64,000 nucleotides of DNA from an uncultured Chloroflexia bacterium (GCA_963743255.1 CAVUPD010000001.1:25025-89024); one strand, 5' to 3'. Positions 11,161 to 64,000 are shown, numbered from the stretch's first letter. Made by a program: numbers and translations. The notes: a model not told the origin generated them from the letters alone.

Positions 11161-11181
11161 GCCGTCTCCGCAAAGAAAGTT

Positions 11182-11208: not shown

Positions 11209-11230
11209 TCAGTCCCTCAGTTCTTTCCTC

Positions 11231-13772: not shown

Positions 13773-13798
13773 AGGCGGCGCCCTTCCGGGCGCCGCCT
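13773..13798 (-). terminator. hairpin downstream of the small membrane-protein gene
   Basis: AGGCGGCGCCC-TTCC-GGGCGCCGCCT, 27 nt after the minus-strand stop at 13825. There is no clear U-tract. Confidence 0.35.
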
Positions 13799-13824
13799 TC
13801 GCACGAGTTCCATCCCGAGTGGGA

Positions 13825-14142
13825 TTACTTCCGCTTTCGGCTCTCTGCCCCCGACACGTCGTCTTCCTTGGATCTCGGCTGCACCATGCCCCAGATCAGC
13901 AGCCCGGCTCCGGCGCCCAGCCCGTATGCTCCCAATGTCGCCCCGCCGACCACCCAGTGGCCCAGAAGTACGAAGCTGGCCAATAGCCCGAGATAGACGG
14001 CCACCAGCAGCTGCCACGCTACCATTTCCTGCTTCACCATGCGGATGGTCAGCCAGCCAACGCCGAGCCCAAACACGAGCGCGCCCAGGAACCTGAACAC
14101 ATACCCCGCGATGTCGAGCACATCCAGAAACGTCATGGCCAT
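13825..14142 (-). CDS. small hypothetical membrane protein (105 aa, about 3 TM)
   Basis: MAMTFLDVLDIAGYVFRFLGALVFGLGVGWLTIRMVKQEMVAWQLLVAVYLGLLASFVLLGHWVVGGATLGAYGLGAGAGLLIWGMV... ATG 14140-14142 follows GAGAGGAGAC. The ORF-track start at 14223 lacks an RBS. Confidence 0.5.
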   Translation of the reverse strand: MAMTFLDVLDIAGYVFRFLGALVFGLGVGWLTIRMVKQEMVAWQLLVAVYLGLLASFVLLGHWVVGGATLGAYGLGAGAGLLIWGMVQPRSKEDDVSGAESRKRK

Positions 14143-14256
14143 GTCTCCTCTCTCCGGCTCCCCCCAGTATACCGGCCCGACCGAGAGAGGCAATAGGAGC
14201 ATAGCTGGACAGGCTCTCCCCACCGTGTTACCATCGCGGAAGCCCGGAGAATCAGT

Positions 14257-14388
14257 ATGGCCGCCAAGCGCACTCGCTCCGCCAACAAACGACCTCGCCG
14301 CCGGATCAACTGGCAGCGCGTGCTGTTCATGTCCCTTGGCCTTCTGGTCGTCCTGGCTTTCGTCCTCAGCATGATCACGAAGGGCTGA
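14257..14388 (+). CDS. 43-aa basic, C-terminally membrane-anchored peptide (hypothetical)
   Basis: Own translation: MAAKRTRSANKRPRRRINWQRVLFMSLGLLVVLAFVLSMITKG-stop. GGAGAATCAGT precedes the ATG. Below the ORF-track size cutoff. A CTGCGGGCCGG...CCGGCCGCAG hairpin follows it. Confidence 0.35.
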   Translation: MAAKRTRSANKRPRRRINWQRVLFMSLGLLVVLAFVLSMITKG

Positions 14389-14442
14389 GCCTGCGGGCCG
14401 GTCTTCGTCCTCCGGCCGCAGATCGATTCATAAGGAGACCCT

Positions 14443-14964
14443 ATGACCAACGAACGTTTTGGGTTGATCCAGTTCGATGGTGTCGACCGGACAGTCATCG
14501 GCCCGGACCTTAAGCCGGGCGATTCGGCGCCCGAATTCGTCGCCGTCGGCAACGACTGGGCCGAGGTACATCCGCTGAAGGCCAGCGCCGGCAAGGTCAT
14601 CGTCCTGGCCGCCGTGCTGTCCCTCGAAACCAGTGTCTGCGACCGGGAGATCCGACGCTTCAACACCGAGGCTTCCAGCCTCGGGCCCGCGGTCCAGATC
14701 TATGTCATCAGCACCGACCTGCCTTTCACATTGAAGCGCTCGTGCGTCGCCTCCGGCATCGACCAGGTGACGACGCTGACTGACCAACTGCACTCCGACT
14801 TCGGCCCACGCTACGGCTGCTGGGTCAAGGAGATGCGGGTCCTTCGCAGGGCGGTGTTCGTCATCGGTCGTGACGGCAAGCTGACCTATGTCGACTACAT
14901 GAAGGTATTCGGCGACGAGCCGCGTTATGACGACGTCCTGGCGGCGGTCAAGAAGGCTCTCTGA
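14443..14964 (+). CDS. tpx: thiol peroxidase (atypical 2-Cys peroxiredoxin, Tpx family)
   Basis: 173 aa intact. VIVLAAVLSLETSVCDREIRRFN (peroxidatic Cys context) and ISTDLPFTLKRSCVASGI (resolving Cys context). AAGGAG RBS. Confidence 0.85.
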   Translation: MTNERFGLIQFDGVDRTVIGPDLKPGDSAPEFVAVGNDWAEVHPLKASAGKVIVLAAVLSLETSVCDREIRRFNTEASSLGPAVQIYVISTDLPFTLKRSCVASGIDQVTTLTDQLHSDFGPRYGCWVKEMRVLRRAVFVIGRDGKLTYVDYMKVFGDEPRYDDVLAAVKKAL

Positions 14965-15287
14965 TTCCCGATCCGGCATGCCCGCCTGCCCACCATCGCC
15001 GGCATCCGGCATGGCTTGCTGCCCGAAGACCGCTGAGCAGTTGCGCGCCAGTACCCGGGTCCTCTTCGTTGAAACCACGCGACAGTTGCGCACGCCAGTA
15101 CTGGGCGCGTCGCCGGCAACTAGCCACCCCTGTGGCACGCGGCTTGCACGGAGACTGCAAGGGGACCGTAAGGTCCAACCCGCGGCGGGCGTGCTATCCT
15201 GTGGTCGTTGAAGGACGTTTCCGCCGCAACCTAGCGCTCTGCCTGAAGCGCAATGCAGGCAATACTTGAGGAAAGGAGGATACGCCG

Positions 15288-15434
15288 ATGTTGTTCGCCC
15301 CGAAGGAACGTGGTCAGGGTCTTGTTGAGTATGCGCTCATCCTCGTCTTGGTCGCCGTGGTCGTGATCGTCATCCTGGCGCTGCTCGGGCCCGCGATCGG
15401 CAATGTTTTCAGCAATATCGTTGGCAACATCTAG
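15288..15434 (+). CDS. flp: Flp/Fap family type IVb pilin, copy 1 (48 aa)
   Basis: MLFAPKERGQG/LVEYALILVLVAVVVIVILALLGPAIGNVFSNIVGNI: short basic leader, G followed by xxEY, then a hydrophobic helix, i.e. the Flp prepilin signature. AAAGGAGG RBS. Below the ORF-track cutoff, translated by hand. Confidence 0.8.
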   Translation: MLFAPKERGQGLVEYALILVLVAVVVIVILALLGPAIGNVFSNIVGNI

Positions 15435-15456
15435 TCCGTGCCGTGATCGTTGATCG

Positions 15457-15490
15457 GGAGCCCCGCCGCAAGGTGGGGCTCCTTGCTTTT
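15457..15490 (+). terminator. intrinsic terminator after flp copy 1
   Basis: GGAGCCCCGCC-GCAA-GGTGGGGCTCC followed by TTGCTTTT. Confidence 0.7.
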
Positions 15491-15758
15491 GAAAGCGGGA
15501 CTCGCGGTGAGGGGGCCACGTCATGCCCTGGCGCCTGTCCAAGATGGTGCAAGCGATGGTACGAAGGTCCTCTCCGATGAAGCCGCCAGGCTTCCCGGCT
15601 TCTGCGCACTCGACGTGCAGACCGAGTGTAAGCCAACCGAAAGGTCGGAGGCGGGGCAGATGTGTTATTCTGTTGCTGGTGGGTTTCAACGACGCTGCAA
15701 ACCTGCGCTCTGCCTGAGGCGCACATCAGGCGAAACTCAACGAAAGGAGGATACACCA

Positions 15759-15905
15759 ATGTTGTTCGCTCCGAAGGAACGTGGTCAGGGTCTTGTTGAG
15801 TATGCGCTCATCCTCGTCTTGGTCGCCGTGGTCGTGATCGTGATTTTGGCGCTGCTCGGGCCCGCGATCGGAAACGTCTTCAGCAATCTGGTTGCCAACA
15901 TCTAG
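15759..15905 (+). CDS. flp: Flp/Fap family type IVb pilin, copy 2 (48 aa)
   Basis: C-terminal 48 codons of ORF 15450..15905: MLFAPKERGQGLVEYALILVLVAVVVIVILALLGPAIGNVFSNLVANI. AAAGGAGG RBS. About 93% nt identity to copy 1, with only 2 aa changes. Confidence 0.8.
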   Translation: MLFAPKERGQGLVEYALILVLVAVVVIVILALLGPAIGNVFSNLVANI

Positions 15906-15934
15906 TCCTGTTCCGCCGGGAGATCCTTCTCCCT

Positions 15935-15975
15935 GAGAAGGAGCCCCACCTTCGGGTGGGGCTCCTTCTCGTTCC
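15935..15975 (+). terminator. intrinsic terminator after flp copy 2
   Basis: GAGAAGGAGCCCCACC-TTCG-GGTGGGGCTCCTTCTC, a 16-bp perfect stem, followed by GTTCC. Confidence 0.65.
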
Positions 15976-15999
15976 AGAGTGAACGCGCGGGCGGAGTGG

Positions 16000-18900
16000 C
16001 TAGCGCGGGAACCGGGTGAGGACCGTCGCCGCGGCCGGCACCGGCGTCCGATCGCCCGTGTGCAGTCGCTTGACCGGCTTCACCGGGTCAGCCGTCGCGC
16101 CCTGATAGACGGCGACCGGGGTCCCCTCGGCCGTCGACTTGCGCTGCAGGTAGGCCTGCCCGAGCAAGTACCCGTCTCGGTCGACGGCGCACGACGTGAC
16201 CGTGCCGATCACCTTGCCGCGCGGATCGACCACCGGGTCGCCGTTGTGGGCCATGCGCACGCCCTTCTCGTTGAAGCGGAAGCGCACCACTTCGCCGTCG
16301 CGGGAGGCCTCCTGTTCCAGGAACGCCTGCCGGCCTATGAACCACGGCTTGTTCGTCTTGCAGTACGAGCCGAAGCCGGCGTGCCCGACACCCAGGCCAA
16401 GGGCGCCAGCCATCTCATGTCCATAGAGCGGCAGCCCTGCTTCGGTGCGGAGGGAATTACGCGCCCCCAGGCCGATCGGTTTGAGCCCCAGCGGCGCCCC
16501 CACCTTGAACAGCGCCTTCCACAATCCCAAGCTCTTCTCCGGGTGGACGAACAGTTCGAACGCCACTCGCTCGCCTGTGTATCCGGTGCGGCTGACCACC
16601 AGATCCATCCCCCCGAAGGTGCCCTCCATCACGCCCGCCCACGGGAGCTTCTTCAGCTTGCGGGCCGTTCCGGCATCGCAGCCCAGCGCCAGCAGGATGT
16701 CGCGGCTCTTGGGTCCTTGCAAGGCGATGTCGACGCGCTGTTCGTCGCCCGCCTTCGGATCGCGCAGGTTGCGAAGCCGGCAGGTGCGGCCGAAGGCCAG
16801 CGCCCACGGGCGGGCATTGTCGATGCGGACCTGCCCGTCCTTGACGGCGTTCAACCAGGCCCAGTCTTTGTCGTCGTTCGAGGCGTTGACCACCACCAGG
16901 TACATCGCTTCCCGGCGACGATAGACCATCGTGTCGTCGATGACCTGCCCGTCCGGGTCGAGGAACTGCGTGTAGAGCGATTCGCCGACGGCCAGCGAGG
17001 CAACATCGTTGGTGACCACGCTGTCGAGGAACGCGCACGCCTGCGAGCCCTCCACCTGGTAGACACCCATATGGCTGACGTCGAACAACCCGGCGGCATT
17101 GCGCGTCGCCAGATGTTCCTCGATGACCGACGTGTACCACACGGGCATGTCCCAGCCAGCGAACGGGACCATCCTGGCGCCCATCTCCCGATGGGTGGCG
17201 TGCAGGGCGGTCTTCTTCGGCTCCCCCTCCGCCGGCTCGACCCACTTGAAGCGCGGCAGGGCGCGGCCTTTCGTCTCCGGCATACCGACGAACCAAGGCT
17301 TGTCGCCCCCTGCGTCGCTCGAGCCTTCGGGGAGCTTGGGGACGGTGCCGGCGAGTGTGACCACCACCGGACCGGGAATGCGCTTCAAGAAATCGGAGGC
17401 ATCGAAGGCGACGAACCCATCCGAGAGATCGCGCAGCCACGTGGCGACGCGCTGGGCGTCCTCCCCGGGAACCGTCAACTGCCACGCCTCCAGCGTACGG
17501 GTGACGACGGCCTTGAGGGGAGCGCCGGCGGCGCTCAGCGTGCAGCGCGCCGAGACGCCCGGTTTCAGGTCCTCCGTTCGAGCGCTGATCCCCCAGCGCA
17601 GCATGTCCTCCGCCAACGGGCCGCGCAGCTCAAGGACGGCGTACTTGCCTCGGGGCGCTGGGTCGTCCGGGTAGGCGAAGTGCGGGTACCCGTGGCTGGT
17701 GGCGCGGAAGTCGATGCCTTTGGATTGCGCCAGGTCACGCACCTTGATCTGCGTGGCGTGCAGCACGTCGAAATCAACCTTGGCGCGCGGCTGCGGCCCC
17801 TTGCGCGCCGACTGCACGTAGGGCACGCAGGCCTTGAGCAACTCAGCGATCCAGGTCCCCAGCGACTCACTCTCGCCGGTAGTGAAGCCCCGCTGCGTGA
17901 TCCACGGGGTCCCCAGGCGTACGCCGGACGGATTGGCGGCGGTCGTGTCGCCCGGGATGGTGTTGCGATTGACGACGATGCCTGCCAGATCGAGGACCCG
18001 GGCCGCAACGTCGCCCGAGAGCGGCGTCCCCAGCGGGCCGGTGACCGACTTACAGTCGACGTTGGTCATGTGCGTGTCGGTGCCGCCGAAGGAGATGCGC
18101 ATCCCGGCGCGTTCGAGGCCGCGGGTCAGCGCGGCGGCGTTGGCGACGATCTGCTTCTGCAGGGCAGCGAACTCCTGGGTGGCCGCGAGTTTGAAAGTCA
18201 ACGCCTGGGCAGCCATCGTGTTGACGTGCGGCCCACCCTGCTCGCCGGGGAAGACGGCCCGGTCGAGCAGCTTGGAGAGCGACTCGAGGTGGGTGACGAT
18301 CGCCGCGCCGCGCGGGCCGCACAGCGACTTGTGCGTGGTGAAAGTGACGACGTGCGCGAGTCCAACCGGGGACGGGTAGGCGCCTCCGGCCACCAGCCCG
18401 GCCACGTGGGCAATATCGGCCAGCAGGTAGGCGCCGACCTCATCGGCGATCGCCCGAAACTTCTTCCAATCCACCGACCAGGGGTAGGAAGAATAGCCGG
18501 CAATGATCATTTTAGGGCGGTGCTCACGGGCAAGCGCGGCCACAGCCTCGTAGTCGATGCGCTCGGTCGCCGGGTCGACCTTGTAGTGCACTGCCTTGTA
18601 CAGCTTGCCCGAGCGGTTGACCGGGGATCCGTGCGTCAGGTGGCCGCCATGCAACAAGCTCATCCCGAGCACGACCGCACCGGGTTCGAGCAACGCGTGG
18701 TACACGGCGTTGTTTGCCGGCGCGCCGGACAGCGGCTGGACGTTGACGAACAGCTCATCGGGCGTCAGCCCGTTGGCGGCGAAAGCCTCGGCGCAACGGC
18801 GGCGGGCCAGCGCCTCGACGATGTCGGCGTACTCCACGCCCTTGTAGTAGCGCGGGTCGGCAAAGCGGCGGTAGCCGGCCAACTGAAGCTCGTAGTCGAG

Positions 18901-19122
18901 GATCTCGGCCTCGGTCTGGGTGCGGGTCGCGTCGTCCGGATAGCCTTCGGCGTAGATATTCTGGAAAGCAGACGACAGCGCCTCGCGCACGGCCAACGGC
19001 GAGCTGCTCTCGGAGGGGATCAGAATCAGTCGGCGGAATTGGCGCTCGGATTCGATCTGTAGCAATTCGTGGAGCGCAGGGTCGAGGTCGGCCAGCCGGC
19101 CGCGTACGAGGAAGTCGGTCAT
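16000..19122 (-). CDS. fusion protein: serine hydroxymethyltransferase (N-terminal) + ~200-aa linker + glycine-cleavage aminomethyltransferase GcvT (C-terminal)
   Basis: Intact ORF 16000..19131. SHMT motifs: LILIPSESSSPLAVREALSSAFQNIYAEGYP and VVTFTTHKSLCGPRGA. GcvT motifs: ALHATHREMGARMVPFAGWDMPVWYTSVIEEHLATRNAAGLFDVSHMGVYQVEG and FIGRQAFL. The likely start is ATG 19120-19122 (MTDFLVRG...), 9 nt after GGGAG, rather than the GTG at 19131. Confidence 0.85.
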   Translation of the reverse strand: MTDFLVRGRLADLDPALHELLQIESERQFRRLILIPSESSSPLAVREALSSAFQNIYAEGYPDDATRTQTEAEILDYELQLAGYRRFADPRYYKGVEYADIVEALARRRCAEAFAANGLTPDELFVNVQPLSGAPANNAVYHALLEPGAVVLGMSLLHGGHLTHGSPVNRSGKLYKAVHYKVDPATERIDYEAVAALAREHRPKMIIAGYSSYPWSVDWKKFRAIADEVGAYLLADIAHVAGLVAGGAYPSPVGLAHVVTFTTHKSLCGPRGAAIVTHLESLSKLLDRAVFPGEQGGPHVNTMAAQALTFKLAATQEFAALQKQIVANAAALTRGLERAGMRISFGGTDTHMTNVDCKSVTGPLGTPLSGDVAARVLDLAGIVVNRNTIPGDTTAANPSGVRLGTPWITQRGFTTGESESLGTWIAELLKACVPYVQSARKGPQPRAKVDFDVLHATQIKVRDLAQSKGIDFRATSHGYPHFAYPDDPAPRGKYAVLELRGPLAEDMLRWGISARTEDLKPGVSARCTLSAAGAPLKAVVTRTLEAWQLTVPGEDAQRVATWLRDLSDGFVAFDASDFLKRIPGPVVVTLAGTVPKLPEGSSDAGGDKPWFVGMPETKGRALPRFKWVEPAEGEPKKTALHATHREMGARMVPFAGWDMPVWYTSVIEEHLATRNAAGLFDVSHMGVYQVEGSQACAFLDSVVTNDVASLAVGESLYTQFLDPDGQVIDDTMVYRRREAMYLVVVNASNDDKDWAWLNAVKDGQVRIDNARPWALAFGRTCRLRNLRDPKAGDEQRVDIALQGPKSRDILLALGCDAGTARKLKKLPWAGVMEGTFGGMDLVVSRTGYTGERVAFELFVHPEKSLGLWKALFKVGAPLGLKPIGLGARNSLRTEAGLPLYGHEMAGALGLGVGHAGFGSYCKTNKPWFIGRQAFLEQEASRDGEVVRFRFNEKGVRMAHNGDPVVDPRGKVIGTVTSCAVDRDGYLLGQAYLQRKSTAEGTPVAVYQGATADPVKPVKRLHTGDRTPVPAAATVLTRFPR

Positions 19123-19176
19123 AGATATCACTCCCGGAGGCTTGGGTCGTGTCCGATCAGGATGTCAGACAACTCG

Positions 19177-22098: not shown

Positions 22099-22175
22099 TG
22101 GTGGGCGGAACAGGACTCGAACCTGCGACCCCTTCTGTGTAAGAGAAGTGCTCTAACCAGCTGAGCTATCCGCCC
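22099..22175 (-). tRNA. tRNA-Val (anticodon UAC), CCA encoded
   Basis: Minus strand: GGGCGGA-TA-GCTC-AGCTGGTTA-GAGC-A-CTTCT-CTTACAC-AGAAG-GGGTC-GCAGG-TTCGAGT-CCTGT-TCCGCCC-ACCA. Cloverleaf folded by hand; anticodon loop is CT-TAC-AC. Confidence 0.9.
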
Positions 22176-39645: not shown

Positions 39646-39820
39646 TCTGTCTGCGGCCTGAGAGATTCGTCCCGTGCGGGACTTGCCCCATCGGCGCCTT
39701 GCGGCTTTCCAGAGGTGCGGCCAGAAGGGTCCTTGGACCTGAGAGTTTCGCCCGGGACTGCACCGGCCCTCGAGCTTGCCCCTTCGGTGCCCGGCCGGCC
39801 GGCCGGGGCTCTTCCCTGTC
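39644..39820 (-). promoter_or_regulatory. tandem glycine riboswitch (two aptamers)
   Basis: Aptamer 1 on the minus strand: GACAGGGAAGAG...GCACCGAAGGGGCAA...CTCTCAGGTCCAAGGAC. Aptamer 2: CTCTGGAAAG...GGCGCCGATGGGGCAA...CTCTCAGGCCGCAGACAGAGG. These match the conserved GGAGAG / CACCGAAGGGGCAA / CUCUCAGG cores of the glycine riboswitch, in the classic position upstream of gcv genes. Confidence 0.85.
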
Positions 39821-39839
39821 TGTGCTCGCTTGTCAGATG

Positions 39840-49941: not shown

Positions 49942-51319
49942 ATGCCAGCGTACCCGGCTGAGCCGTTTCGCATCAAGGTCGTCGAGCCGATCCGCAGCCT
50001 CGATCGGGCACAACGCCTGTCGGCCATGAAGGCCGCCGGCTACAACGTGTTCGGGCTGCGCTCGGACGACATCTACGTCGACCTGCTGACCGACTCCGGG
50101 ACCGGCGCGATGAGCGACCGGCAGTGGGCAGCCATGATGCTGGGCGACGAGTTGTATGCCGGGGCACGCTCCTTCTATCGCCTGAAAGATGCCATCGACA
50201 CGATCTTCGGATTCCGCCACTTCATGCCCACCCATCAGGGCCGCGCCGCCGAGAACATCCTGACCAAGCTGCTGGTCAAGCCCGGACTGTTCATCCCGTC
50301 CAACACGCATTTCGACACGACCGAGGGCAACATCCTCGACCGCGGCGGCCGGCCGACGAACCTGGCCATTCCGGAAGCAGCGCATGCTTCCGATCTGCAT
50401 CCGTTCAAGGGCAACATGGACCTGGCGGCGCTGGAGGCGTTCATCGAGCGCGTTCGGCGCGGAGAACATCCCTCTGGGCATGATGACCATCACCAGCAAC
50501 GGCGTGGGCGGGCAGCCGGTCTCGCTCGAGAATCTGCGCCAGGTGAGTGCGATCTACCGCCGGCACCGGATTCCGTTCTTCATCGACGCCTGCCGCTACG
50601 CCGAGAATGCCTTCTTCATCCAACAGCGGGAGCCGGGCTGCTCCCAGTTGCCGGTGCGCGAGATCGCCCGGCAGATGTTCGCGCTGGCCGACGGCGCCAC
50701 GATGAGCGCCAAGAAGGACGCCATTGTCAACATGGGCGGCTTCCTGGCGATGAACGATGACGAGCTGTATCAGAGCGCCTGCAACGAGCTGATCTTGCGC
50801 GAGGGGTTCCCAACTTACGGCGGGCTGTCCGGCCGCGATCTCGACGCGATGGCCGTCGGCCTGTGGGAGGGCCTGGAGGAAGGGTATCTGGCGTACCAGG
50901 TCGGCCAGGTGGCCTACCTGGCGCAGCGCATGTTGGACCTCGGCGTGCCGGTGATCCAGCCTCCAGGCGGCCACGCCGTGTACATCGATGCCGGCGCGTT
51001 CCTGGCGCACATCCCGCGCGGCGAATTCCCCGGTCAGGCGTTGGCCGTCGAGCTGTACCTGGAAGGCGGCGTGCGCGGCGTCGAGCTGGGCTCGGTGATG
51101 TTTGCGCGGGTAGAGGAAGCAACCGGCGAAATGGTCTACCCGTTGATGGAGCTTGTGCGTCTGGCGCTGCCGCGGCGCACGTACACGCAGGCCCACCTTG
51201 ATTTCGTGGCGGAGGCGGTCGGCCGCATCGCCGCCCGCAAGACCGAGGTCCGCGGCTACCGCATCACCTACCAGCCCCGGCTGATGCGCCACTTCACGGC
51301 GCGATTCGAGCCGCTCTGA
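49942..51319 (+). CDS. tnaA: beta-eliminating lyase, tryptophanase/tyrosine phenol-lyase family (1 frameshift at ~50453)
   Basis: [52 protein letters not shown]...HQGRAAE joins the 50384..51319 frame: [19 protein letters not shown]...[15 protein letters not shown]...[17 protein letters not shown] (PLP lysine). GGGAGG RBS. Trp versus Tyr specificity is not resolvable by eye. Confidence 0.8.
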
Positions 51320-51574
51320 TCCCCGATCGCGCGACGATCTGCCCATCGCGTGAAGGGGCAAGGCATGCCGTGGAGCGGGGTGCGCAATGCGGCAAGTCGA
51401 GTCTGCCCTCCGGCCTGCATCGGACTAGATTCGCCCTGTTGGGCGTCTGATTCCGAAACTGGCAGCACATGCCGTCTGTTCCCACCGGGAAGGGGGTGAT
51501 AGGTCGCACAAACGCATCGCGCATGATGACCGCTTGTTGGGCAGCAACTCACTCTTCCAGCTAGGGAGGCATCG

Positions 51575-51892
51575 ATGCCACTCTTTGGATCCAAACCCAA
51601 GAAGGGCTATTTGTTCATCTCTTACAGACAAAGCCCTCCAACAGATGCGCAGAAAGAGGAGATCGTGTCCTCCTTCGGGAGGGGCAAGATGCCAGTTGTG
51701 TTCGCCGAGGCGCGTCCGTTGCCGAACGAATGGGAGACATGGTCTAGCCAGCTCCGCGATGCCCATCTCGGACTGGAGACCAGTGTTTACCTTGCCCAAA
51801 AAGGCATAGGGCAGGGGCCCGGGAAACTGAAGCAGGAGTCTCGTGAGATGAGCGGATTCTTGGTGACCATCGTAAGTGGTGACCTAGACTAG
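51575..51892 (+). CDS. hypothetical 105-aa protein in a lower-GC islet
   Basis: GGGAGG 7 nt before the ATG. A/T-ending codon usage unlike the neighbours. N-terminal KKGYLFISYRQ is vaguely TIR-like, but the protein is too short for a domain call. Confidence 0.45.
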   Translation: MPLFGSKPKKGYLFISYRQSPPTDAQKEEIVSSFGRGKMPVVFAEARPLPNEWETWSSQLRDAHLGLETSVYLAQKGIGQGPGKLKQESREMSGFLVTIVSGDLD

Positions 51893-52105
51893 GGGATCCT
51901 GCTACTTCCGGCCGGCGCCACTTCAGGGCTTGGGACGGCTTGCCAGACATGGCCTGAAGGTGAATGAGCGCTTCGGAGGAACCCGGTATGGTGATCGCGC
52001 AAACCGGGAGAGGTCGGCGTCCGTCACACGATTGGCAACTCTCCAGCTGCTTCCCGCAGTGCAGGCAAGTTGTCGCGAGCGATCCCCAGGGAGAGGATTC
52101 TCGGG

Positions 52106-52180
52106 CCGCCCTAGAACGGACTGAAGTTGACCCGGCGGGCTGGGCATCAATCGGAGCTTGCCCGGTCTACCGAATGATCC
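52106..52180 (+). repeat. decayed attC-like element (same family as 60396, 62111, 62963)
   Basis: GCCGCCCTAGAACGGACTGAAGTTGACCCGGCGGGCTGGGC aligns with GCCGCCTAACAACTCGCTGAAGCTGACCCGGCGGGCTGGGC of the 60.4-kb site. The RYYYAAC box is mutated (CTAGAAC), no GTTRRRY partner is present, and the 3' arm is partial (GCTTGCCCGGTC). Confidence 0.5.
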
Positions 52181-52315
52181 GATCCTTCGTGCCGTGCCCG
52201 TGCAGCCAGATCCAGCCCGCACTCGCCCCCCGAGGCAACCTTCAAATGCGATGCACGCCAAATGTCCCACGCGGGTGATGCTCCATCCGGACGCCGATCA
52301 TCCCTGCCCGGAAAA

Positions 52316-55954: not shown

Positions 55955-57723
55955 ATGACCGTTTCTGAGTTCGTCCTCCCGCAGGCATTGCGATCGGATC
56001 GCCGCACACCGCTGCGCTGGGTGCTGTCCCATGCCCGGCGGCAGTGGTGGCTGTTGATCCTGCTGCTCGTCGGCGCACTGGGCAACGCCTCCCTGGCGGC
56101 GGTCGTGCCGGTGCTGGTCGGGCGCGCCTTCAACGTGATGTTGAGCGCCAAGCCGGACCTGCGCCTGGTCGGCACGCTGGCGCTGGTGATCGCCGGCTCG
56201 CAGATCGGCCGCGGCGTGCTGCAGCTCGGACGCAACTTCAGCGCCGAGCTCTCGGCGCAGCGCGTCGAGCGCGATGTCCGCCAGGAGCTGTACCTCAGCC
56301 TGCTGGGCAAGAGCATGACCTTCCACAGCCTGCAGCCGGTCGGCGACACGATGGCCCGGGCGACGAACGACGTGCGTCAGGTCAATTACCTGTTCAGCCC
56401 CGGGCTGAACCTGGTGATCGGCTCGGCCAATTTCATGATCGTGCCGCTGATCGTCGCCCCTACCTATCACCCGTCGCTGGTCCTGGTCCCGGCGCTGTAC
56501 ATCCTTGGCTACGGTCTGGCCGTGGCGCAGTATCTGCGTCAGCTCGAACCGGTCACCGAGCGCGTGCGCCAGGCGTTCGGGACGCTGAACGCTCGCCTGG
56601 CGGAAGCGCTCGACGGCATCGAGGTGGTCAAGGGGCACGCGCGCGAGGCGCGAGGAGGTCGATGGGTTCGAGGCAACGCGGCGCGCGTCGTTCGCGACGC
56701 CTCCGTCCGTCAGGGCGACATCGAGGCGCGCTTCCTGCCGCTGCTGCTCCTGGCGCTGGCCGAGGCCGGCGCCTTCCTGCACGGGCTGCTGCTCTACCGC
56801 CAGGGGCTGCTGGACGTTGGCCAGGTGATCGCCTTCGTCGGGTTGATCCAACTGTTCGGCTTCCCGACCTTCGTCTCACTTTGGGCTTACTCGCAGCTCT
56901 CGATGGGGCTGGCCAGCGCGCAGCGCATCCTCGAGCTGATCAACCGCGAGACCGAGCTCGATCAGAACCCGCGCGGCCACGCCGCCCCGATGCGCGGCGA
57001 GATCGAATTCCGAGACGTGACCTTCGGTTACACCGGATCGCGGTCCAAGCCTGGAGCAGGTGACCTTCCGCGTCCAGCCGGGACAGACGGTGGCGATCGT
57101 CGGGCAGACCGGCGCCGGCAAGACATCGCTGGCCAAGCTGGTCAACCGCACGTACGACGTCTCGGACGGCGCGGTTCTGGTCGACGGGATCGACGTGCGC
57201 GCAGTGGGAGCTGGGCTCGCTGCGGCGTCAGATCGCCATCATCGAGCAGGACGTATTCCTGTTCTCGCGCACCATCGCCGAGAACATCGCCTTCGGCCGG
57301 CCGGGCGCTACGCCGGCCGAGATCGAGGCGGCGGCCGAGGCGGCGCAGGCCCACGAGTTCATCAGCGCTTTTTCCGACGGCTACCGCACGCTGGTCGGCG
57401 AGCGCGGCGTGACGCTTTCGGGCGGCCAGCGTCAGCGCATCGCCCTGGCCCGCGCCTTGCTGACCGACCCGCGCATCCTGATCCTGGACGACTCGACCAG
57501 CTCGATCGACAGCGCCACCGAGGACCAGATCCAGCGCGCCCTGTTCCAGGCGTCGCGCGGCCGGACGACGATCCTGATCACGCACCGGCTGTCGCAGATC
57601 CGCTGGGCCGACTTGATCGTCGTGCTGCGCCGCGGCCGGCTGGCGGCCGCCGGGTCGCATGACGACCTGATGCGCACGTCGGACGCTTACCGGCGCATCT
57701 TCACCCGTTACGAGGGCGCGTAG
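55955..57723 (+). CDS. ABC exporter, fused permease/ATPase subunit 1 (at least 2-3 frameshifts, ~57040, ~57200)
   Basis: TMD in the 55955..57412 frame. NBD pieces: [25 protein letters not shown] (Walker A, 57060 frame) and [32 protein letters not shown] (signature plus Walker B, 57409..57723 frame). Confidence 0.8.
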
Positions 57724-57725
57724 GT

Positions 57726-59561
57726 ATGGGCTTCTTCGACGGACTGGAAGCCGAGCCCTACGACCGCACCTACCGCGACCGCGACCTGGTGCGCCGGATG
57801 GCGGACGCCTTCCGGCCGAAGGGGCGCGCCATCGGCGTGATCCTTGCCTGCAATCTGATCGCCGCTGCCGCCGGCGTGGGGATCCCGATCCTGATGGCCC
57901 GCGGCGTCGACATGATGGTGAAGTCCGGAACACCGGCGGGCATGTCGGCGCTGGCCGCGGCGCTGTTCATCCTGGGCGCCGCCGGCTGGGGCGTGAATTG
58001 GATCCGCCGCCGGGTGACAGCGCGGGCCGTCGGCGACGTGATGCTGGCGCTGCGCCGCCGGGCGTTCGCCGCCGCTGCCGAGCACGACCTTTCCTTCTAT
58101 GACGAGCACTCGTCGGGCCGCATCGTCAGCCGCATCACGTCCGACACCGAGGAGTTCGCCAACGTCGTCACGCTGGTCGCCGACCTGCTGAGCTCGTTCG
58201 TCCAGGCCGGCATCCTGCTCATCGTCCTGGCGCGCATCGAGGTCCGGCTGCTGCCCTGGCTGCTGGTAACGCTGCCGCCGGTGTTCTTCTGTGCCTATGC
58301 CTTTCGGCGCCTGGCGCGCACGGTGACGCGGCGCGGCTTCCGCGCCATGGCCAATGTCAACGCTCTGACCAAGGAAGCGGTGAGCGGCATCGCCGTGGCT
58401 AAGAACTTCCGCCAGGAAGGCGCTATCTTCACCGAGTTCGACCGGGTCAACCAGCAGTCGTACGCGATCAACGTCCGGCGCGGGTTCGTGCTGGGGATGG
58501 TCTTTCCGGTGTTGAACGCGCTGGCCGGGCCGGGGACGGCGCTGCTGTTGTACGCCGGCGCAGTCAACGTCGCCGGGGCGCTGATCACCTACGGGTCGTG
58601 GTACCTGTTCGTCACCAGCCTGGATTACTTCTGGGACCCGATGCTGGCCTTCTCGTCGTACTGGAGCCGGATCCAGGGCGGGCTGTCGGCGGCCGAGCGC
58701 GTCTTTGCGCTGATCGACGCCGAGTCCGCCGTGGTGCAGGCGGAGCGGCGCGCCGTGCCGACGCTGCGGGGCGAGATCCGCTTCGAGCACGTCGGGTTCT
58801 ACTACAAGTCGAGCGAGCCCGTGCTGAAGGACTTCGACCTGCTCGTGCGACCCGGGGAGACGCTGGCGCTCGTCGGGCACACCGGCGCCGGCAAGTCGTC
58901 GATCGCCAAACTGGTGACGCGCTTCTACGAGTTCCAGAGCGGGCGGTTGCTGATCGACGGGATGGACATCCGCACGCTCGACCTGCAGGCCTACCGCCGG
59001 CAGTTGGGCATTGTGCCGCAGTCGCCGTTCCTGTTTTCGGGGACGGTGATCGACAACATCCGCTATGCGCGCCCGGTGGCGCCGCTGGGCGAGATCGAGG
59101 CGCTTGCTCGGCGCATCGGCGGGGGCGAGTGGCTCGAGTCGCTGCCCGAGGGGCTGGCGACCGAGGTCGGCGAGCGCGGGGCGCGGCTCTCGATGGGCCA
59201 GCGGCAGTTGGTGTCGTTGATGCGCGTGCTGGTGCAGAAGCCGGCGATCTTCATCTTAGATGAGGCGACGGCCAACATCGACCCGTTCACCGAGGCGCAG
59301 ATCCAGGAGGCGTTGGGGCTGATCCTGGCCGAGACAACGGCGCTGCTGATCGCCCACCGCCTGTCGACCGTGCGCGCCGCCGACCGGATCCTCGTCCTGC
59401 GCCAGGGCGTGATCCTCGAGGAAGGCGACCACGACGGCCTGCTCAAGCGCGGCGGCCACTACGCCGAGCTGTACAACACGTATTTCAGGCACCAAGCCCT
59501 TGGCTACGTCCCCGAGGGGATGGAGATCGTGGACGGGAGGTTGAGCGTGAAGGAGACGTGA
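57726..59561 (+). CDS. ABC exporter, fused permease/ATPase subunit 2
   Basis: Intact 611 aa. ETLALVGHTGAGKSSIAKLV (Walker A), LSMGQRQLVSLMRVLVQKPAIFILDEATANID. Starts 3 nt after the stop of subunit 1, so this is a typical heterodimeric pair. Confidence 0.9.
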   Translation: MGFFDGLEAEPYDRTYRDRDLVRRMADAFRPKGRAIGVILACNLIAAAAGVGIPILMARGVDMMVKSGTPAGMSALAAALFILGAAGWGVNWIRRRVTARAVGDVMLALRRRAFAAAAEHDLSFYDEHSSGRIVSRITSDTEEFANVVTLVADLLSSFVQAGILLIVLARIEVRLLPWLLVTLPPVFFCAYAFRRLARTVTRRGFRAMANVNALTKEAVSGIAVAKNFRQEGAIFTEFDRVNQQSYAINVRRGFVLGMVFPVLNALAGPGTALLLYAGAVNVAGALITYGSWYLFVTSLDYFWDPMLAFSSYWSRIQGGLSAAERVFALIDAESAVVQAERRAVPTLRGEIRFEHVGFYYKSSEPVLKDFDLLVRPGETLALVGHTGAGKSSIAKLVTRFYEFQSGRLLIDGMDIRTLDLQAYRRQLGIVPQSPFLFSGTVIDNIRYARPVAPLGEIEALARRIGGGEWLESLPEGLATEVGERGARLSMGQRQLVSLMRVLVQKPAIFILDEATANIDPFTEAQIQEALGLILAETTALLIAHRLSTVRAADRILVLRQGVILEEGDHDGLLKRGGHYAELYNTYFRHQALGYVPEGMEIVDGRLSVKET

Positions 59562-59927
59562 GGGTCGTTCCCCGGTCGACTAACCCCACCACTCTGCTTC
59601 GAACTCACGTTCAGCATCCCAGGCCTCCTATTCCCCTTCGCGCACGTGTCTGGTTCCTTCTCGAAAGTGCCCAGATCACAAGTCCTGCTTCACAGTAGAA
59701 TCCGTTGTTGGTGATTGTGTGGCGGCTTCGCGCCACACCAATCCCTTAATTCGTTAGGCGGCTAACATCCGTGAGCCGTCTTCGCCTTCACTAGACCAAT
59801 ATGCGCCAAAAACGGGCGCGACTTCAAGTCGGACGATTCTGTCACGCTCGCAGAGCGCAACACGCCCCTTCTGACAACTTCCAAGAGCTAGAATGGGGCA
59901 TCTCCAATCTGCGAAAGGTAACGCTCA

Positions 59928-60323
59928 ATGGCAAGAACCAAGTCTGGCCACGTTCAGCCTGGCGGAGTGGATGAGTACATCGCAAGATGCCCCAAGGAGG
60001 TACAGGGAAAGTTGAAGAAGATCAGGGCTGCGATTCGAGAAGTCGCGCCTGGGTCCACGGAGACCGTCAGCTACTTCCACATACCCGGCTACTCCTATGA
60101 GGGCTATGACTACAACGGCATGTTCGCCTGGTTCAGCTACAAGGACCCGCATGTGCGCCTGCACCTGCGTCCCCCAGTAGTAGAAGACCACAAGCGGGAA
60201 GTAAAGAGCTATGCGACAAGCAAGGCGATTGTTAGTTTCCCGGCGGATGAAGAGGTACCAGTGGCCTTGGTGAAGAAGCTGGTGAAAGCAAGCCTTAAGG
60301 CGATGAGGGACAGGCCAGCCTAG
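59928..60323 (+). CDS. DUF1801 (YdhG-like) domain protein
   Basis: Intact 131 aa. GGVDEYIARCPKEVQGKLKKIRAAIREVAPGSTETVSYFHIPGYSYEG...HVRLHLRP...SKAIVSFPADEEVPVALVKKLVKASL. Confidence 0.75.
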   Translation: MARTKSGHVQPGGVDEYIARCPKEVQGKLKKIRAAIREVAPGSTETVSYFHIPGYSYEGYDYNGMFAWFSYKDPHVRLHLRPPVVEDHKREVKSYATSKAIVSFPADEEVPVALVKKLVKASLKAMRDRPA

Positions 60324-60395
60324 GTTCGATACGTTCATAGCGCGGGTTCTGCGTTGTTCTAAAGGCAGACTCCCGACGCCCCGAACCTGTTAGCC

Positions 60396-60526
60396 GCCTA
60401 ACAACTCGCTGAAGCTGACCCGGCGGGCTGGGCCTCCGGTGCTGCTTGTCTTGCCCGCTGGCTTCGCCTAGAGTCCATGTAGAGTTGCCCGCTTCCGCCG
60501 GGCAGCTTAGCTCGAGGCCGTTAGGC
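60396..60526 (+). repeat. attC-like recombination site 1 (131 nt)
   Basis: Starts GCCTAAC (RYYYAAC) and ends GTTAGGC (GTTRRRY), its exact complement. Inner arms AACTCGCTGAAGCTGACCCGGCGGGC and GCCCGCTTCCGCCGGGCAGCTTAGCTCGAGGCC pair imperfectly, with a bulged A and a non-pairing spacer next to the R boxes. The centre is variable. Confidence 0.65.
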
Positions 60527-60581
60527 GGCTCGACTATCGGCGCAATCATTGCGGCCAAGAGCATGCCAGAGGACAGTGCGA

Positions 60582-61667
60582 ATGCGATTAGAAGCTCAGA
60601 GAAGCAATAGCTCAGCGCAGCACGGATCTTCCCCACCTATCTACAACGGTAGCTGGGTCGATCGGCTTTTCGTTTGGATCGAACACCGCCCATTCCCTCC
60701 ATGGTTGTTCTATTTGCTCATCATCCTGGCTCTCGCCATTCTTGGCCACGTCGTAAGGTGGATTGACGGGTCGCTGTCTGCCGGCTCACTCCAAGTCATT
60801 CCCCTAGTCGAAGCTCCCTTCGCTGTGTACTTTCTCGCACTGATTCACTACCTGAACTTCGCGGCCCGACGGGCCCTCGCCACCTTTCGGCCCATTCTCG
60901 ATGTGACGGACGAAGAAACGAAGCAACTCGAGCATGCTCTGAATGGGCTTCCCGGATGGACAGGAATCCTCGCTGTCCTCGCCGGTGCCTTCGTGGGCTT
61001 TGCCAATGTCTACTCGAGGCCTGAATCCTGGGGCGTGTCCGCGGCCCCTTCCCTCGGCCTCACCGCCCTAATTGCGGCGGTGGCCAATGTCGGCTCCATT
61101 CTTTGGGTTGTGCACACTATCCGGCAGTTGCGAGCTGTTGATCTCATCCACCGTATGCCCAAGAAAATCAACCCCTTCCACAGGGAGCCCCTTTACGCGT
61201 TCTCCACGCTGACTCTGCCTACGGCAATTGGCGGATTGCTTCCCGTCTATATCTACTTGTTCCTCGCGTACTACTTTGGCGTCCTCGGGCCTTTGCCACT
61301 CCCCTCGGCCTTCGAGGCGGCGGGGCTTGGCCTCGTCATCGTCCTCGCGCTCGCAGCCTTTGTCCTGCCCCTGTCATCCATGCACCATCGTCTCGCCCAA
61401 GAGAAGGCCCGGCTCGTCGCCGAAGCGGATCAGCGGTACTCCGTCATGGTCGACAGATTCAACGATGAGCTCGACCAGGCTAGATTCAAAGACCTAGATG
61501 CCACATCACGTGCAATCGCCAGCCTTACGAGCCAGCGAGAGGTCCTTGCAAGGATCTCCACGTGGCCCTGGAAGCCGGAGACCCTCAGATCGCTCCTGAC
61601 CACCGTTGCGCTACCAGTCCTCTTGTATCTTCTCAGCCGTTTCGTCGGACGCTATTTGGGTTTGTGA
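60582..61667 (+). CDS. hypothetical polytopic membrane protein
   Basis: ORF 60549..61667. The preferred start is ATG 60582, after GAGGAC. Several TM spans plus a C-terminal coiled-coil-like segment and a final TM. No recognisable family. Confidence 0.55.
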   Translation: MRLEAQRSNSSAQHGSSPPIYNGSWVDRLFVWIEHRPFPPWLFYLLIILALAILGHVVRWIDGSLSAGSLQVIPLVEAPFAVYFLALIHYLNFAARRALATFRPILDVTDEETKQLEHALNGLPGWTGILAVLAGAFVGFANVYSRPESWGVSAAPSLGLTALIAAVANVGSILWVVHTIRQLRAVDLIHRMPKKINPFHREPLYAFSTLTLPTAIGGLLPVYIYLFLAYYFGVLGPLPLPSAFEAAGLGLVIVLALAAFVLPLSSMHHRLAQEKARLVAEADQRYSVMVDRFNDELDQARFKDLDATSRAIASLTSQREVLARISTWPWKPETLRSLLTTVALPVLLYLLSRFVGRYLGL

Positions 61668-61718
61668 GCTGACGCCGCATCACAGGGCGAATGTTCCCAT
61701 GATAGAGGAGGCGATACA

Positions 61719-62096
61719 ATGGACAGGTTTACAGCCCTCAGCAAGGACCATCTGCCAGAAGGCCCAGGTAGCCCAGGGGTCAAAAGACACATCGCGTTCA
61801 AGGGAGAGGATTTCACCATCCTCCGGTCGCGCCTCGATCCCGACACGATGTCCGGCTGGCATCACCACGGGCAATACTCCGTCCACGGTTATGTCGTCAG
61901 TGGATCCTCCCGCTTCGACTCTGGCCCAGGTGGCAAGGACGTCACATCCCTCGGACCAGGCGACTTCTTCTTCGTCCCCCCGTTCGCAATCCACCGGGAT
62001 GGAAATCCCTCGCCATCGGAGCCGCAGGAAGTCATCATCTTCCTCCGCGGAAGTGGGCCCTTGGTTGTCAATGTCGAACAACCAGAGCCTGGCTAA
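61719..62096 (+). CDS. cupin domain protein
   Basis: Intact 125 aa. GWHHHGQYSVHGYVVSG...GPGDFFFVPPFAIHRDGNP (cupin motifs 1 and 2). GAGGAGG RBS. Confidence 0.75.
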   Translation: MDRFTALSKDHLPEGPGSPGVKRHIAFKGEDFTILRSRLDPDTMSGWHHHGQYSVHGYVVSGSSRFDSGPGGKDVTSLGPGDFFFVPPFAIHRDGNPSPSEPQEVIIFLRGSGPLVVNVEQPEPG

Positions 62097-62110
62097 TTCA
62101 AGGTGCGGTC

Positions 62111-62267
62111 GCCTAACAACTCGCTGAAGCCCTGGGAGATCACCAGGATCTTCGACTGACCCGGCGGGCGGCGCTTTCGGGCCCGCCTGCCTGGCCCGTC
62201 GACGGGGCGCAGAAACCTGCAGGGTCCTCCCGCTTCCGCGGGGCAGCCAACATCGAGGCCGTTAGGC
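62111..62267 (+). repeat. attC-like recombination site 2 (157 nt)
   Basis: GCCTAACAACTCGCTGAAGC...TGACCCGGCGGGC...CCCGCTTCCGCGGGGCAGCC...CGAGGCCGTTAGGC. Same R boxes and arms as site 1, with a 26-nt insertion (CCTGGGAGATCACCAGGATCTTCGAC) in the 5' arm. Confidence 0.65.
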
Positions 62268-62302
62268 CGCACAGGTCCATCTTCTGCGGAGGTTCTTTTG
62301 CC

Positions 62303-62944
62303 ATGATGCATCGCCACAGCGTACTCCTAACCCTTGCGTTCTTGGCGCTCTGCCCAATTGCCGTCACCGCCTGCGGCTCAGCACCTGACGAGGCCGCCGC
62401 GACGACCGAGGCCGGAGCCGATGAGGCGGCTCTCCAATGGTCCTCGCCGCCTCCAATGCAGATCGATCCTTCCAAGTCCTACGAAGCGGTGTTCAAGACG
62501 GAGCTAGGCGATTTCAAGGTGCGGCTCTTTCCCGATCAAGCACCGATCACGGTCAACAACTTCGTCTTTCTCGCCAAGCAGGGTTACTACGACAACACGA
62601 CGTTCCACCGTGTGTTGCCCGGTTTCATGGCCCAGGGTGGCGATCCCACTGGCACAGGCACAGGCGGGCCAGGTTATACCTTTGAGGATGAGTTCGACCC
62701 GGATCTCCAGTTCGACCGGGCTGGCTTGTTGGCGATGGCCAATCGTGGGCCCAATACCAACGGAGGGCAGTTCTTCATCACCTACGCCCCAACGCCTCAC
62801 CTCACCGGCCTTCACACCATCTTTGGCGAGGTAGTTGAAGGTGCTGAGGTCCTCAACAGCCTGACGCCGCGGGACCCGCAAGCCAATCCCGACTTCCAGG
62901 GCGATCGTCTGATTTCCGTTGAGATCATCGAGGCCGATGGCTAG
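62303..62944 (+). CDS. cyclophilin-type peptidyl-prolyl cis-trans isomerase, lipoprotein
   Basis: Intact 213 aa. [24 protein letters not shown] signal. [31 protein letters not shown]...[19 protein letters not shown]. Confidence 0.9.
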
Positions 62945-62962
62945 GTGCCGAAGTCCCATGCC

Positions 62963-63439
62963 GCCCAACAAACTCGCCCATGCCCTTGAGAAGCACCACC
63001 CCCCCTCGGCCCTAGAAGGACACTAGGGCCTTCGACATTGGAAGACCACCCCCGCCTACTGCGCCCCACCAAGTATGCGGGGCCTGCGGCGGGGCCAATG
63101 GCAGGGCCTTCGGCTGACCCCCGGGGACAACGTCCCGCCTACTACGCCCCACTTTGAACGTGGGGCCTACGGCGATACCCCGGCAAGGCCATCCAGGACG
63201 AACGGCCTACGGCGGGACCCCGGTCCGGACATAAGGGATAAACGCTCCACGACTGACCCGGCGGGCTGGGCCTTCGGTGATGCTTGTCCTGCGCGCTGGC
63301 GAGGCGTAGAGTGGTAGGAGTCTGCCCGCTTCCGCCCGGCAGCTTCCCACTTAGGACGTGGGACCTTGTCCTGCAACGAGCGAAGGATCTTCGATCCTGC
63401 AATGAGCGCAGGACCTTCGGTTGCTTGAGGCCGATAGGC
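62963..63439 (+). repeat. attC-like site 3, expanded (477 nt) with degenerate R' core
   Basis: Starts GCCCAACAAACTCGCC and ends GAGGCCGATAGGCGGCT (GAT instead of GTT). It contains the family arms TGACCCGGCGGGCTGGGCC (63254) and TGCCCGCTTCCGCCCGGCAGCTT (~63323), plus extra internal hairpin repeats. Confidence 0.5.
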
Positions 63440-63568
63440 GGCTTCCATTGCTGAGGGCCGCAGAGGCATGCGACAGTCGGCCCCCTGTCACGTTACTCCC
63501 AAGGACCGTGCAACTGGGAGGGTATCTGCAGATTCTCGCCCGATAGACTGCCGATGGAGGCAATCAGG

Positions 63569-64000
63569 ATGAAGGCAGGCAAGCTCGTTCTACTCCTTGC
63601 TGTCGCGCTGATGGCGGGGTGTACCACCGGACCTTCTGCCCCAGCGGCTCCTCTCCCAGCCGCGGTGATCTCGACACCGCCTTCGACCAGTGCAACGCTA
63701 CCAGTACCAGTGATAGCGACAGCCACACCGCTCGTTCCCAAGGAGCGCCCGGGCACAGTCTGGGTAGTCGCCTCCGATACTCTTGCGGGCTATGCATTGC
63801 GGTCGTTCCTCCAGATCCCGGTCGGTATGACATGGGGCCCCGACCATAAGCTCTACATCGCCGACTGGTCCGGGCACCATGTCGTCCGTGCAGACAAGAG
63901 CGGCGTGATAGACGATCTTCCATTTTGGGCCGCAATCAAGGAATTCCAGGATGACGGCCCGAGATCCGTTGCCTTTGACTCGGCGGGGAACCTGTATGTC
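63569..64000 (+). CDS. lipoprotein with NHL/SMP-30-like beta-propeller repeats, N-terminal 144 codons; 3' end outside window
   Basis: Own translation: MKAGKLVLLLAVALMAGCTTGPSAP...GMTWGPDHKLYIADWSGHHVVRADKSG...PRSVAFDSAGNLYV. GGAGGCAATCAGG precedes the ATG. Not in the ORF track because there is no stop in the window. Confidence 0.7.
   Translation, partial: MKAGKLVLLLAVALMAGCTTGPSAPAAPLPAAVISTPPSTSATLPVPVIATATPLVPKERPGTVWVVASDTLAGYALRSFLQIPVGMTWGPDHKLYIADWSGHHVVRADKSGVIDDLPFWAAIKEFQDDGPRSVAFDSAGNLYV

Follow-up and report, generated by a model that had tools for sequence, protein, structure and literature searches.

A probable integron gene-cassette array with no integrase nearby in the genome of an uncultured Chloroflexia bacterium

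The window analyzed here is a stretch of 64,000 nucleotides from the genome of an uncultured Chloroflexia bacterium (GCA_963743255.1 CAVUPD010000001.1:25025-89024), which forms part of a contig of 551,723 bp. Its right end, from 59.7 to 64 kb, follows the end of an ABC exporter gene and holds a run of plus-strand open reading frames (ORFs) interspersed with elements that resemble attC, the recombination site of integron gene cassettes. We interpret this region as an integron gene-cassette array with no integrase nearby, hence a CALIN, a cluster of attC sites that has no integron integrase, and assign this reading a probability of about 0.9. The initial annotation of this DNA had proposed a sedentary cassette array or a CALIN, and the cassette-array reading is supported by the anatomy of the elements, by their matches to a covariance model, by a crossover signature and by the linkage of related arrays to integrases.

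The three attC elements of the window are direct repeats on the plus strand, spaced by 1.7 and 1.1 kb, and each of them lies 3' of plus-strand ORFs. Their R'' boxes read GCCTAAC (60396-60402), GCCTAAC (62111-62117) and GCCCAAC (62963-62969) and their R' boxes read GTTAGGC (60520-60526), GTTAGGC (62261-62267) and a degenerate GATAGGC (63433-63439). A lone GTTAGGC (59753-59759) forms the start of cassette 1 (G/TTAGGC). Cassette 1 (59753-60520) carries a DUF1801 ORF (59928-60323; Pfam DUF1801, E = 6.6e-11) and ends in attC1 (60396-60526), which is intact and 131 nt long. Its two ends (59753-59767 and 60388-60402) are complementary at 15/15 positions. Cassette 2 (60521-62261) comprises two ORFs, one encoding a membrane protein that starts at 60549 or 60582 and ends at 61667 (372 aa from 60549), for which a Pfam search returned no match, and the other a cupin (61719-62096; Pfam Cupin_2). 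It is followed by attC2 (62111-62267), an element of 157 nt with intact R boxes and a decayed L' box. Cassette 3 (62262-63433) encodes a cyclophilin with a lipoprotein signal (62303-62944; Pfam Pro_isomerase, E = 1.2e-45) and ends in attC3 (62963-63439), which is composite, decayed and 477 nt long. The next unit (63434-64000) contains an NHL-repeat lipoprotein ORF that begins at 63569 and exits the window (Pfam NHL, E = 2e-4; G+C content 0.63).

The G+C content is 0.58-0.63 at 60-64 kb as compared with 0.68-0.70 at 56-59 kb. This lower-GC region, the box coordinates and the assortment of unrelated small functions had all been described correctly in the initial annotation; its three-element layout stands as far as boxes, strand and ORF order are concerned and is amended in that cassette 2 has two ORFs, attC3 spans 477 nt and a decayed fourth copy exists. 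No attC was detected between the two ORFs of cassette 2. In another genome (locus L004; L-numbers from L004 to L106 label the compared loci), an 80%-identical cupin gene forms a single-ORF cassette flanked on both sides by attCs of other subtypes, and cassette 2 is therefore probably two cassettes fused through the loss of an attC. Viewed together with 59.7 kb upstream and 0.56 kb downstream, the array has its attC sites within 4 kb of one another, all on a single strand, and no intI gene nearby.

attC sites are delimited by R boxes of the form RYYYAAC and GTTRRRY and possess an unpaired central spacer of 5-6 nt (PMC5027507). Extrahelical bases project from the R''-L'' arm, the first of them inside L'' and, on the bottom strand, usually a G; the last is a conserved T, and a 6-bp stem separates the two. 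The terminal structure is variable, and the sites measure 57-141 bp in total, being longer and branched in sedentary integrons (PMC5027507). The order of attC1 is GCCTAAC-AACTC-GCT[G]AAGCTG[A]CCCGGCGGGC ... GCCCGCTTCCGCCGGGCAGCTTAGC-TCGAGGCC-GTTAGGC (extra bases in brackets), with GCCTAAC as R'', GCT[G]AAGC as L'', GCTTAGC as L' and GTTAGGC as R'. The second extra base is found exactly 6 bp past the first and is a T on the bottom strand. The stretch GCT[G]AAGCTG[A]C of the '' arm pairs with GCAGCTTAGC, and in the fold the spacers show weak pairing or none (AACTC, 5 nt, for the '' arm; TCGAGGCC, 8 nt, for the ' arm). Folded as DNA, the bottom strand of attC1 reaches -37.5 kcal/mol (z = -4.1) in a structure that pairs the R and L boxes and leaves the T as a bulge, in agreement with the imperfect inverted-repeat arms, bulged base and spacer noted beforehand and with the outcome anticipated for a bottom-strand fold.

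A search with a structure-aware model had been proposed as a check on the attC assignment, and it proved significant for all three sites. We used a covariance model (R1) built solely from related elements of other genomes, with the window excluded. Scanning the 64 kb, R1 matched attC1 with 148.8 bits (E = 2e-36), attC2 with 52.2 bits (E = 1.4e-11) and the core of attC3 with 58 bits (E = 4.6e-13), and returned nothing else credible. A weak match at 2487-2599 (E = 0.037) falls inside a coding region and was taken as chance. Applied to the 5-kb In2 region of plasmid R100, R1 gave the aadA1 attC as its only significant match (49.1 bits, E = 7e-12). The match is on the right strand, covers the site from end to end and keeps the two arms and the two extra bases in register. 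The 60-nt sequence of a classical 59-base element has a 100% identical match in R100, directly 3' of aadA1 in the order intI1-aadA1-qacEdelta1-sul1. A BLAST comparison of attC1 with plasmids yielded short chance matches only, BLAST being too insensitive for attC.

The window elements belong to a family found in many other genomes. Scanning 185,579 species genomes for the inner arms detected 76 loci, about 55 of which hold the full element (~134 nt), near-invariant over its outer ~35 and ~45 nt. Most of these loci come from metagenome-assembled genomes (MAGs) labeled Chloroflexia, Chloroflexota or Anaerolineales. The copies form same-strand arrays at ORF ends, up to 11 in 8 kb, and orientation is never mixed. 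The R boxes are conserved across 106 family members, whereas centers vary among subtypes of 103-106, ~134, ~160, ~201 and 386-477 nt that share the same arms. The arms themselves occur as GCTGAAGC/GCTTAGC, GATGGAGC/GCTCATC, GCTGGAGC/GCTCAGC, GCTGATGC/GCATAGC and ACTGGTGC/GCACAGT, and compensatory changes keep both extra bases in at least 5 subtypes. Across an alignment of 72 sequences, paired cells amount to 93% and double changes are seen in 11 pairs; 0/500 shuffles performed as well, and slid registers were 26-50% paired. RNAalifold produced a poor consensus because the center of the alignment is badly aligned, and a hand-written arm structure was used instead.

The same family, with near-identical arms, is also present in L047 and L066 (5.97-Mb scaffold, Planctomycetota), in L049 (1.5-Mb contig, Acidobacteriota) and in L025 (58 kb, Bacteroidota). 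Its presence on large contigs assigned to other phyla suggests a cassette pool common to several phyla. The small contigs in Actinomycetota-labeled MAGs could be binning errors.

If cassettes are exchanged at G/TT, the two ends of each cassette (after the GTT of the preceding attC and before the AAC of its own attC) should be complementary, with no such requirement for the two ends of a single attC in the array. We compared the 10 nt after GTT with the reverse complement of the 10 nt before the AAC of the next attC. Across 62 cassettes, complementarity averaged 7.87/10 and was perfect in 19/62, as opposed to a mean of 5.71/10 with 0/106 perfect for the ends within one attC and 5.54 for random pairs. 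The difference between cassette ends and attC ends is significant (paired Wilcoxon p = 2e-7; 0/5000 permutations as high). Judged from sequence, this pattern is the expected signature of crossover at G/TT.

No tyrosine recombinase was found in any frame of the window by a box II pattern search, tblastn and phmmer --max (best E = 0.18; positive controls matched at 1e-31 to 1e-221), which agrees with the absence stated in the initial annotation. The box II pattern identified integrases at three loci of the family (L038, L062 and L072). L038 encodes an intact 330-aa IntI with the IntI-specific stretch (TIGR02249 'integron integrase', 409 bits over a cutoff of 265), divergent from GTTAGGC, the first cassette ORF and a family attC. 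The IntI genes of L062 and L072, 51-56% identical, are placed likewise and have one frameshift each. These frameshifts may be assembly errors, since the sequences are long-read MAGs and the window itself has frameshifted housekeeping genes: the first ABC-exporter gene (55955-57723) and a Beta_elim_lyase gene (49942-51319) are each split over two frames, most simply through indel errors of long-read assembly.

An integrase could lie outside the window, beyond 64000 or split off by rearrangement, so that the region would belong to a complete integron and the CALIN label would be an artifact of the window. The array may continue past the right end of the window, which covers just 64 kb of the 551,723-bp source contig, and rearrangements are known to split integrons into an integron and a CALIN (PMC4889954). 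However, the integrases of L038, L062 and L072 are divergent and located on the attI side, where the window has an ABC exporter and 59.7 kb devoid of integrase, and in the close relative L077 a FEN-like exonuclease gene terminates the array, again without an integrase. We therefore judge a complete integron to be quite unlikely and retain the CALIN interpretation.

The repeats might instead be palindromes of the repetitive extragenic palindromic (REP) or miniature inverted-repeat transposable element (MITE) type that mimic attC boxes, since they are GC-rich, imperfect and intergenic and gather small hairpin modules. This explanation is at odds with the single orientation of the copies at each locus, with the integron integrases adjoining family arrays, with the G/TT crossover indicated by cassette-end complementarity and with the recognition of a classical attC (aadA1) by the family model. 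Apart from one decayed copy (52123-52241), itself on the plus strand and after an ORF, the window has no further copies. Dispersal in both orientations away from ORF ends had been named as the behavior of ordinary REP elements; in the window and at ~55 loci, the copies instead occupy one strand per locus at ORF ends. We consider mimicry by such palindromes extremely improbable.

The start of the array is marked by a motif, GTAGAATCCGTTGTTGGTG (59695-59713, plus strand), ~135 nt past the ABC stop codon. Its GTT is 46 nt before the first cassette boundary, which is abutted by a partial second copy, AATCCCTT. The L072 counterpart, GTAAAATCCCTTGTTAGGC (4802-4820), sits at the junction of the integrase side and the first cassette and is identical to the window motif at 16/19 positions (hand count); the L080 counterpart, GTAGAATCCGTTGTTGGGC (13714-13732), is identical at 17/20 (hand count). 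A common form, GTAGAATCCGTTGTTGG(G/T)(C/G), occurs ~135 nt past the ABC stop in the window, in L080 and, degenerate, in L077, and the stretch that follows is hairpin-capable in all three, with a sequence that differs by locus. Variants are present in L038, L062, L015 (5368-5386) and L061, and other arrays have the motif at 1957-1975 (L088), 1800-1818 (L087) and 809-827 (L102).

In 758 kb of fetched DNA, the first 13 motif bases (at most 1 mismatch) were found at array starts only and always in array orientation, and the window has one occurrence for 0.07 expected. A transposon end was considered and rejected, as no inverted copy exists in the 758 kb. A metagenome scan for the motif returned 23 loci, approximately the number estimated by chance; 3 of the 23 have a family attC 0.5-0.6 kb 3' of the motif, with unrelated neighbors, and none has an integrase. 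The scan being near chance, the link between motif and integrase still comes mainly from L072, the only locus with an integrase beside this motif, together with L038 and L062, which have variant motifs. We read the start motif as a putative attI of a Chloroflexota integron family, kept after the loss of intI. TAGAAT within the motif could be a -10 box; a consensus promoter scan returned no match.

The same locus in relatives reveals how the array differs between genomes. The flanking ABC exporter has homologues under the names Anaerolineales or Anaerolineae, and these names, like the labels of the family loci, fit the Chloroflexota-like host guessed at first. L077 and L078, whose ABC protein is 98% identical (93-95% at the nucleotide level; 94.8% for the L077 gene), have an array that differs from that of the window, in the order ABC gene, ORF119, decayed attC, cyclophilin cassette, short decayed attC, two-ORF cassette, module remnants and FEN-like exonuclease gene. 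Homology with the window ends 11 nt past the ABC stop and resumes just after the R' box of attC2 (window 62269). L080 (ABC protein 84% identical) has other cassettes (BP74_N, GAF/SpoIIE) with family attCs, and L104 and L105 (79% and 70%) have neither an attC nor a start motif. The cyclophilin cassette is 90% identical between the window and both L077 and L019, with different neighbors; in L019, the attC2-cyclophilin block (89.6% identical) is in another context, with a FEN-like gene next to it again. The DUF1801 cassette was not found in other arrays, its nearest homologue (78% identical) being among ordinary chromosomal genes.

As relatives carry different cassettes after the same ABC gene, the array site is fixed in this sub-lineage and its cassette content is not. 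Relatives differ in cassettes at attC boundaries, which is the variation that a comparison of related genomes had been expected to reveal for a cassette array. At L080 11837-13581, a DUF3179 gene on the opposite strand separates the ABC gene from a 203-nt duplicate of this gene's 3' end (90.6% identity with window 59361-59563); 3' of the duplicate come the attI-like motif and the array.

Only attC1 is intact among the three window attCs. In attC2, L' reads GCCAACA in place of GCTTAGC and a 26-nt hairpin module is inserted after GCTGAAGC; its fold is no better than that of shuffled sequences (z = -1.7). In attC3, R'' reads GCCCAAC and R' is mutated to GATAGGC (GTT to GAT), and the family core (63253-63342) is embedded in insertions that total ~350 nt, with ~270 nt of hairpin modules in the left arm and ~85 nt in the right arm. 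A 386-nt composite attC similar to attC3 is present in L016. We also considered attC3 as two attCs around an empty cassette and rejected this option, as there is no internal GTTRRRY.

Each module consists of a 5-bp stem, a 7-nt loop and a tail RYCTWCGR. The four perfect copies are at 62131-62155, 63011-63035, 63148-63172 and 63396-63420, in attC2 and attC3, and modules also occur inside attC sites of L014, L016, L022 and L028. A genome-wide REP was rejected as their origin, since attC2 and attC3 hold 4 perfect copies and the other ~62 kb of the window hold 2, for 1.4 expected by chance. Within the family, modules are located after GCTGAAGC in 7 elements and between CAGCTT and AGC in 5 elements, the latter site being opposite the first extrahelical base. 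The former is inside the stem between the two extrahelical bases. The order of modules in attC3 differs from that in L077 (4591-4702).

A possible single-cassette remnant spans 51425-52241 on the plus strand. It begins with a stretch resembling the start motif, CTAGATTCGCCCTGTTGGGC (51425-51444), continues with an ORF of 105 aa (51575-51892; no Pfam match) and ends in a decayed fourth attC copy (52123-52241), in which the left arm GACCCGGCGGGCTGGGC is exact and which the covariance model scores at 12.9 bits (E = 0.003 with 1.1 kb searched and filters off). The window may hold a second mini-unit at 51.4-52.2 kb. The remnant lies in a segment of ~4.6 kb that is absent from L105; the segment is bounded by the Beta_elim_lyase gene on one side and the ABC pair on the other and includes MFS, ChrB_C and Atg22-like genes.

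The window array is a decaying CALIN. We infer that the DUF1801 cassette is the latest insertion because it is first in line, has an intact attC and perfect ends and is lowest in GC. It appears to be the only clearly mobilizable unit, as no other cassette combines an intact attC with perfectly complementary ends. The cupin and cyclophilin cassettes are probably becoming fixed, since attC2 has lost its L' box and attC3 has lost its GTT and gained large insertions.

Decay might have gone further, leaving a fossil: a cassette array by descent that is no longer recombined and that differs between relatives through deletion or homologous exchange. The loss of the L' box from attC2 and of GTT from attC3, the fusion of the cupin cassette with its neighbor, the still more decayed attCs of the closest relative, L077, and the lack of an integrase in 64 kb are in line with this scenario. 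It accounts less readily for attC1, which is intact (148.8 bits), for the 15/15 complementary ends of cassette 1 and for the placement of this cassette in the first position, the entry point of new cassettes. Moreover, some cassettes of the window are missing from L077 and vice versa, so deletion alone is insufficient. We regard a fossil as a serious contender, at somewhat less than even odds.

Recombination would proceed as follows. Promoterless ORFs, each with an attC, are arrayed in one orientation downstream of an attI-like site. The bottom strand of attC would fold back as a hairpin whose R and L boxes pair and whose spacer stays unpaired, with two bases extrahelical, as established for integrons, and an IntI tyrosine recombinase would cut R' between G and TT, which is likewise established for integrons and presumed here. 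The cassette would then leave as a circle or enter at attI. Any integrase serving the window array would act in trans, from elsewhere in the genome. Transcription would most likely occur by read-through from the ABC-exporter operon or from the TAGAAT box of the attI-like motif. The array would have been seeded in a common ancestor of the window, L077 and L080 lineages, with cassettes turned over since.

Several observations weigh against the CALIN interpretation. On the bottom strand, the first extrahelical base is a C instead of the G usual for classical sites (PMC5027507), and among 72 family attCs folded as DNA the top strand folds slightly better (-34.6 vs -33.8 kcal/mol; 46 vs 26 sites; p = 0.0014), the reverse of the bias reported for classical attCs. 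For these two reasons, the choice of the bottom strand is argued from geometry. An Rfam scan of the window returned a tRNA and a glycine riboswitch only, from a library that contains no attC family. Two of the three window attCs are visibly damaged, and most of the array may consequently be dead. Action of an integrase in trans is deduced, as none is seen in the 64 kb of the 551,723-bp contig. Finally, the attI reading of the start motif draws on L072, which has the same motif, and on two loci with variant motifs.

Arrays that have the start motif and no integrase beside them recur in unrelated genomic settings. An ABC exporter precedes them in the window and in L080 and a binding-protein gene in L102; in L088 the array is divergent from a GH57 gene, and L015 and L087 are further cases. 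We tentatively raise the idea, doubtful as it is, that such orphan platforms, each an attI plus an array, could be a regular and functional arrangement on which a single integrase from elsewhere in the genome acts in trans, and, linked to this, that their attCs accept modules at two fixed positions and so reach 386-477 nt, far longer than the usual 57-141 bp. If true, these platforms are more than debris of lost integrases.

Other features of the window concern different subjects. On the minus strand, a single stop-to-stop frame of 1054 codons (16003-19164) has serine hydroxymethyltransferase and GCV_T (glycine-cleavage T-protein) domains, through a fusion or because two genes share the frame. 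The window also has a glycine riboswitch at 39717-39827 (minus strand) and a tRNA at 22102-22175. A second lower-GC stretch (11001-16000; 0.61-0.63) contains an InhA-like metalloprotease ORF (11234-13324) and a peroxiredoxin (14434-14961), and the attC model found no match in it.

The array adds a well-documented case to a phylum in which integrons have been reported and little described. CALINs and integrons in Chloroflexi were described by Cury et al. 2016 (PMC4889954), and integron integrases of Chloroflexota MAGs appear in work on sul4 (PMC12772301). Cassette insertion outside att sites is also known (bioRxiv 10.1101/2022.09.11.507474). The attC family, with its covariation, linked integrases and candidate attI, could be used to annotate integrons in MAGs from soil and freshwater. 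Cassette turnover at a fixed site that has no local integrase bears on the question of whether CALINs serve as reservoirs still in use. The cassette products are a DUF1801 protein, a membrane protein, a cupin and two lipoproteins, with no resistance or virulence function.

Compared with known systems, the array resembles CALINs (PMC4889954) in having two or more attCs on one strand at distances below 4 kb and no intI near, in being small, like most CALINs, and in carrying cassettes of accessory or unknown function with no resistance genes. Unlike them, it keeps an attI-like start, which their definition does not call for, and its attCs show stepwise decay. It shares with sedentary arrays (VCR, the Vibrio cholerae repeats, and Xanthomonas) a chromosomal site fixed within a lineage, attCs that are very similar to one another and a content that varies between close strains, and the ~130 nt of the window family are close to the 133 bp of VCR2 (PMC5027507); it differs from them in lacking an integrase in cis, in its 3-4 visible cassettes and in its Chloroflexota (Anaerolineae-like) host.

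The 59-base element of aadA1 (In2, R100, L106:2501-2560) corresponds base for base to the family in the register of the '' arm, namely R'' (7) followed by 5 nt, L'' with an extra fourth base, 6 bp and an extra A, and ~19 of the first 25 bases are identical (count by eye). In contrast, the center of the window family measures ~60 nt as opposed to 3-4 nt, the spacer on the R' side 8 nt as opposed to 6 nt, and the first extra base reads G (top strand) or C (bottom strand) in the family, but C and G, respectively, in aadA1. Further counterparts are the Chloroflexota integrons L038, L062 and L072, which share the attC family, the GTTRGGC cassette starts and a related attI motif, and in which a divergent intI is positioned 130-180 nt from attI, where the window has the end of an ABC-exporter gene. 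Set against these systems, the unusual traits here are the orphan attI-like starts in several contexts, the hairpin modules at two fixed attC positions, the bottom-strand C as first extrahelical base and the occurrence of the family on megabase contigs labeled Planctomycetota and Acidobacteriota.

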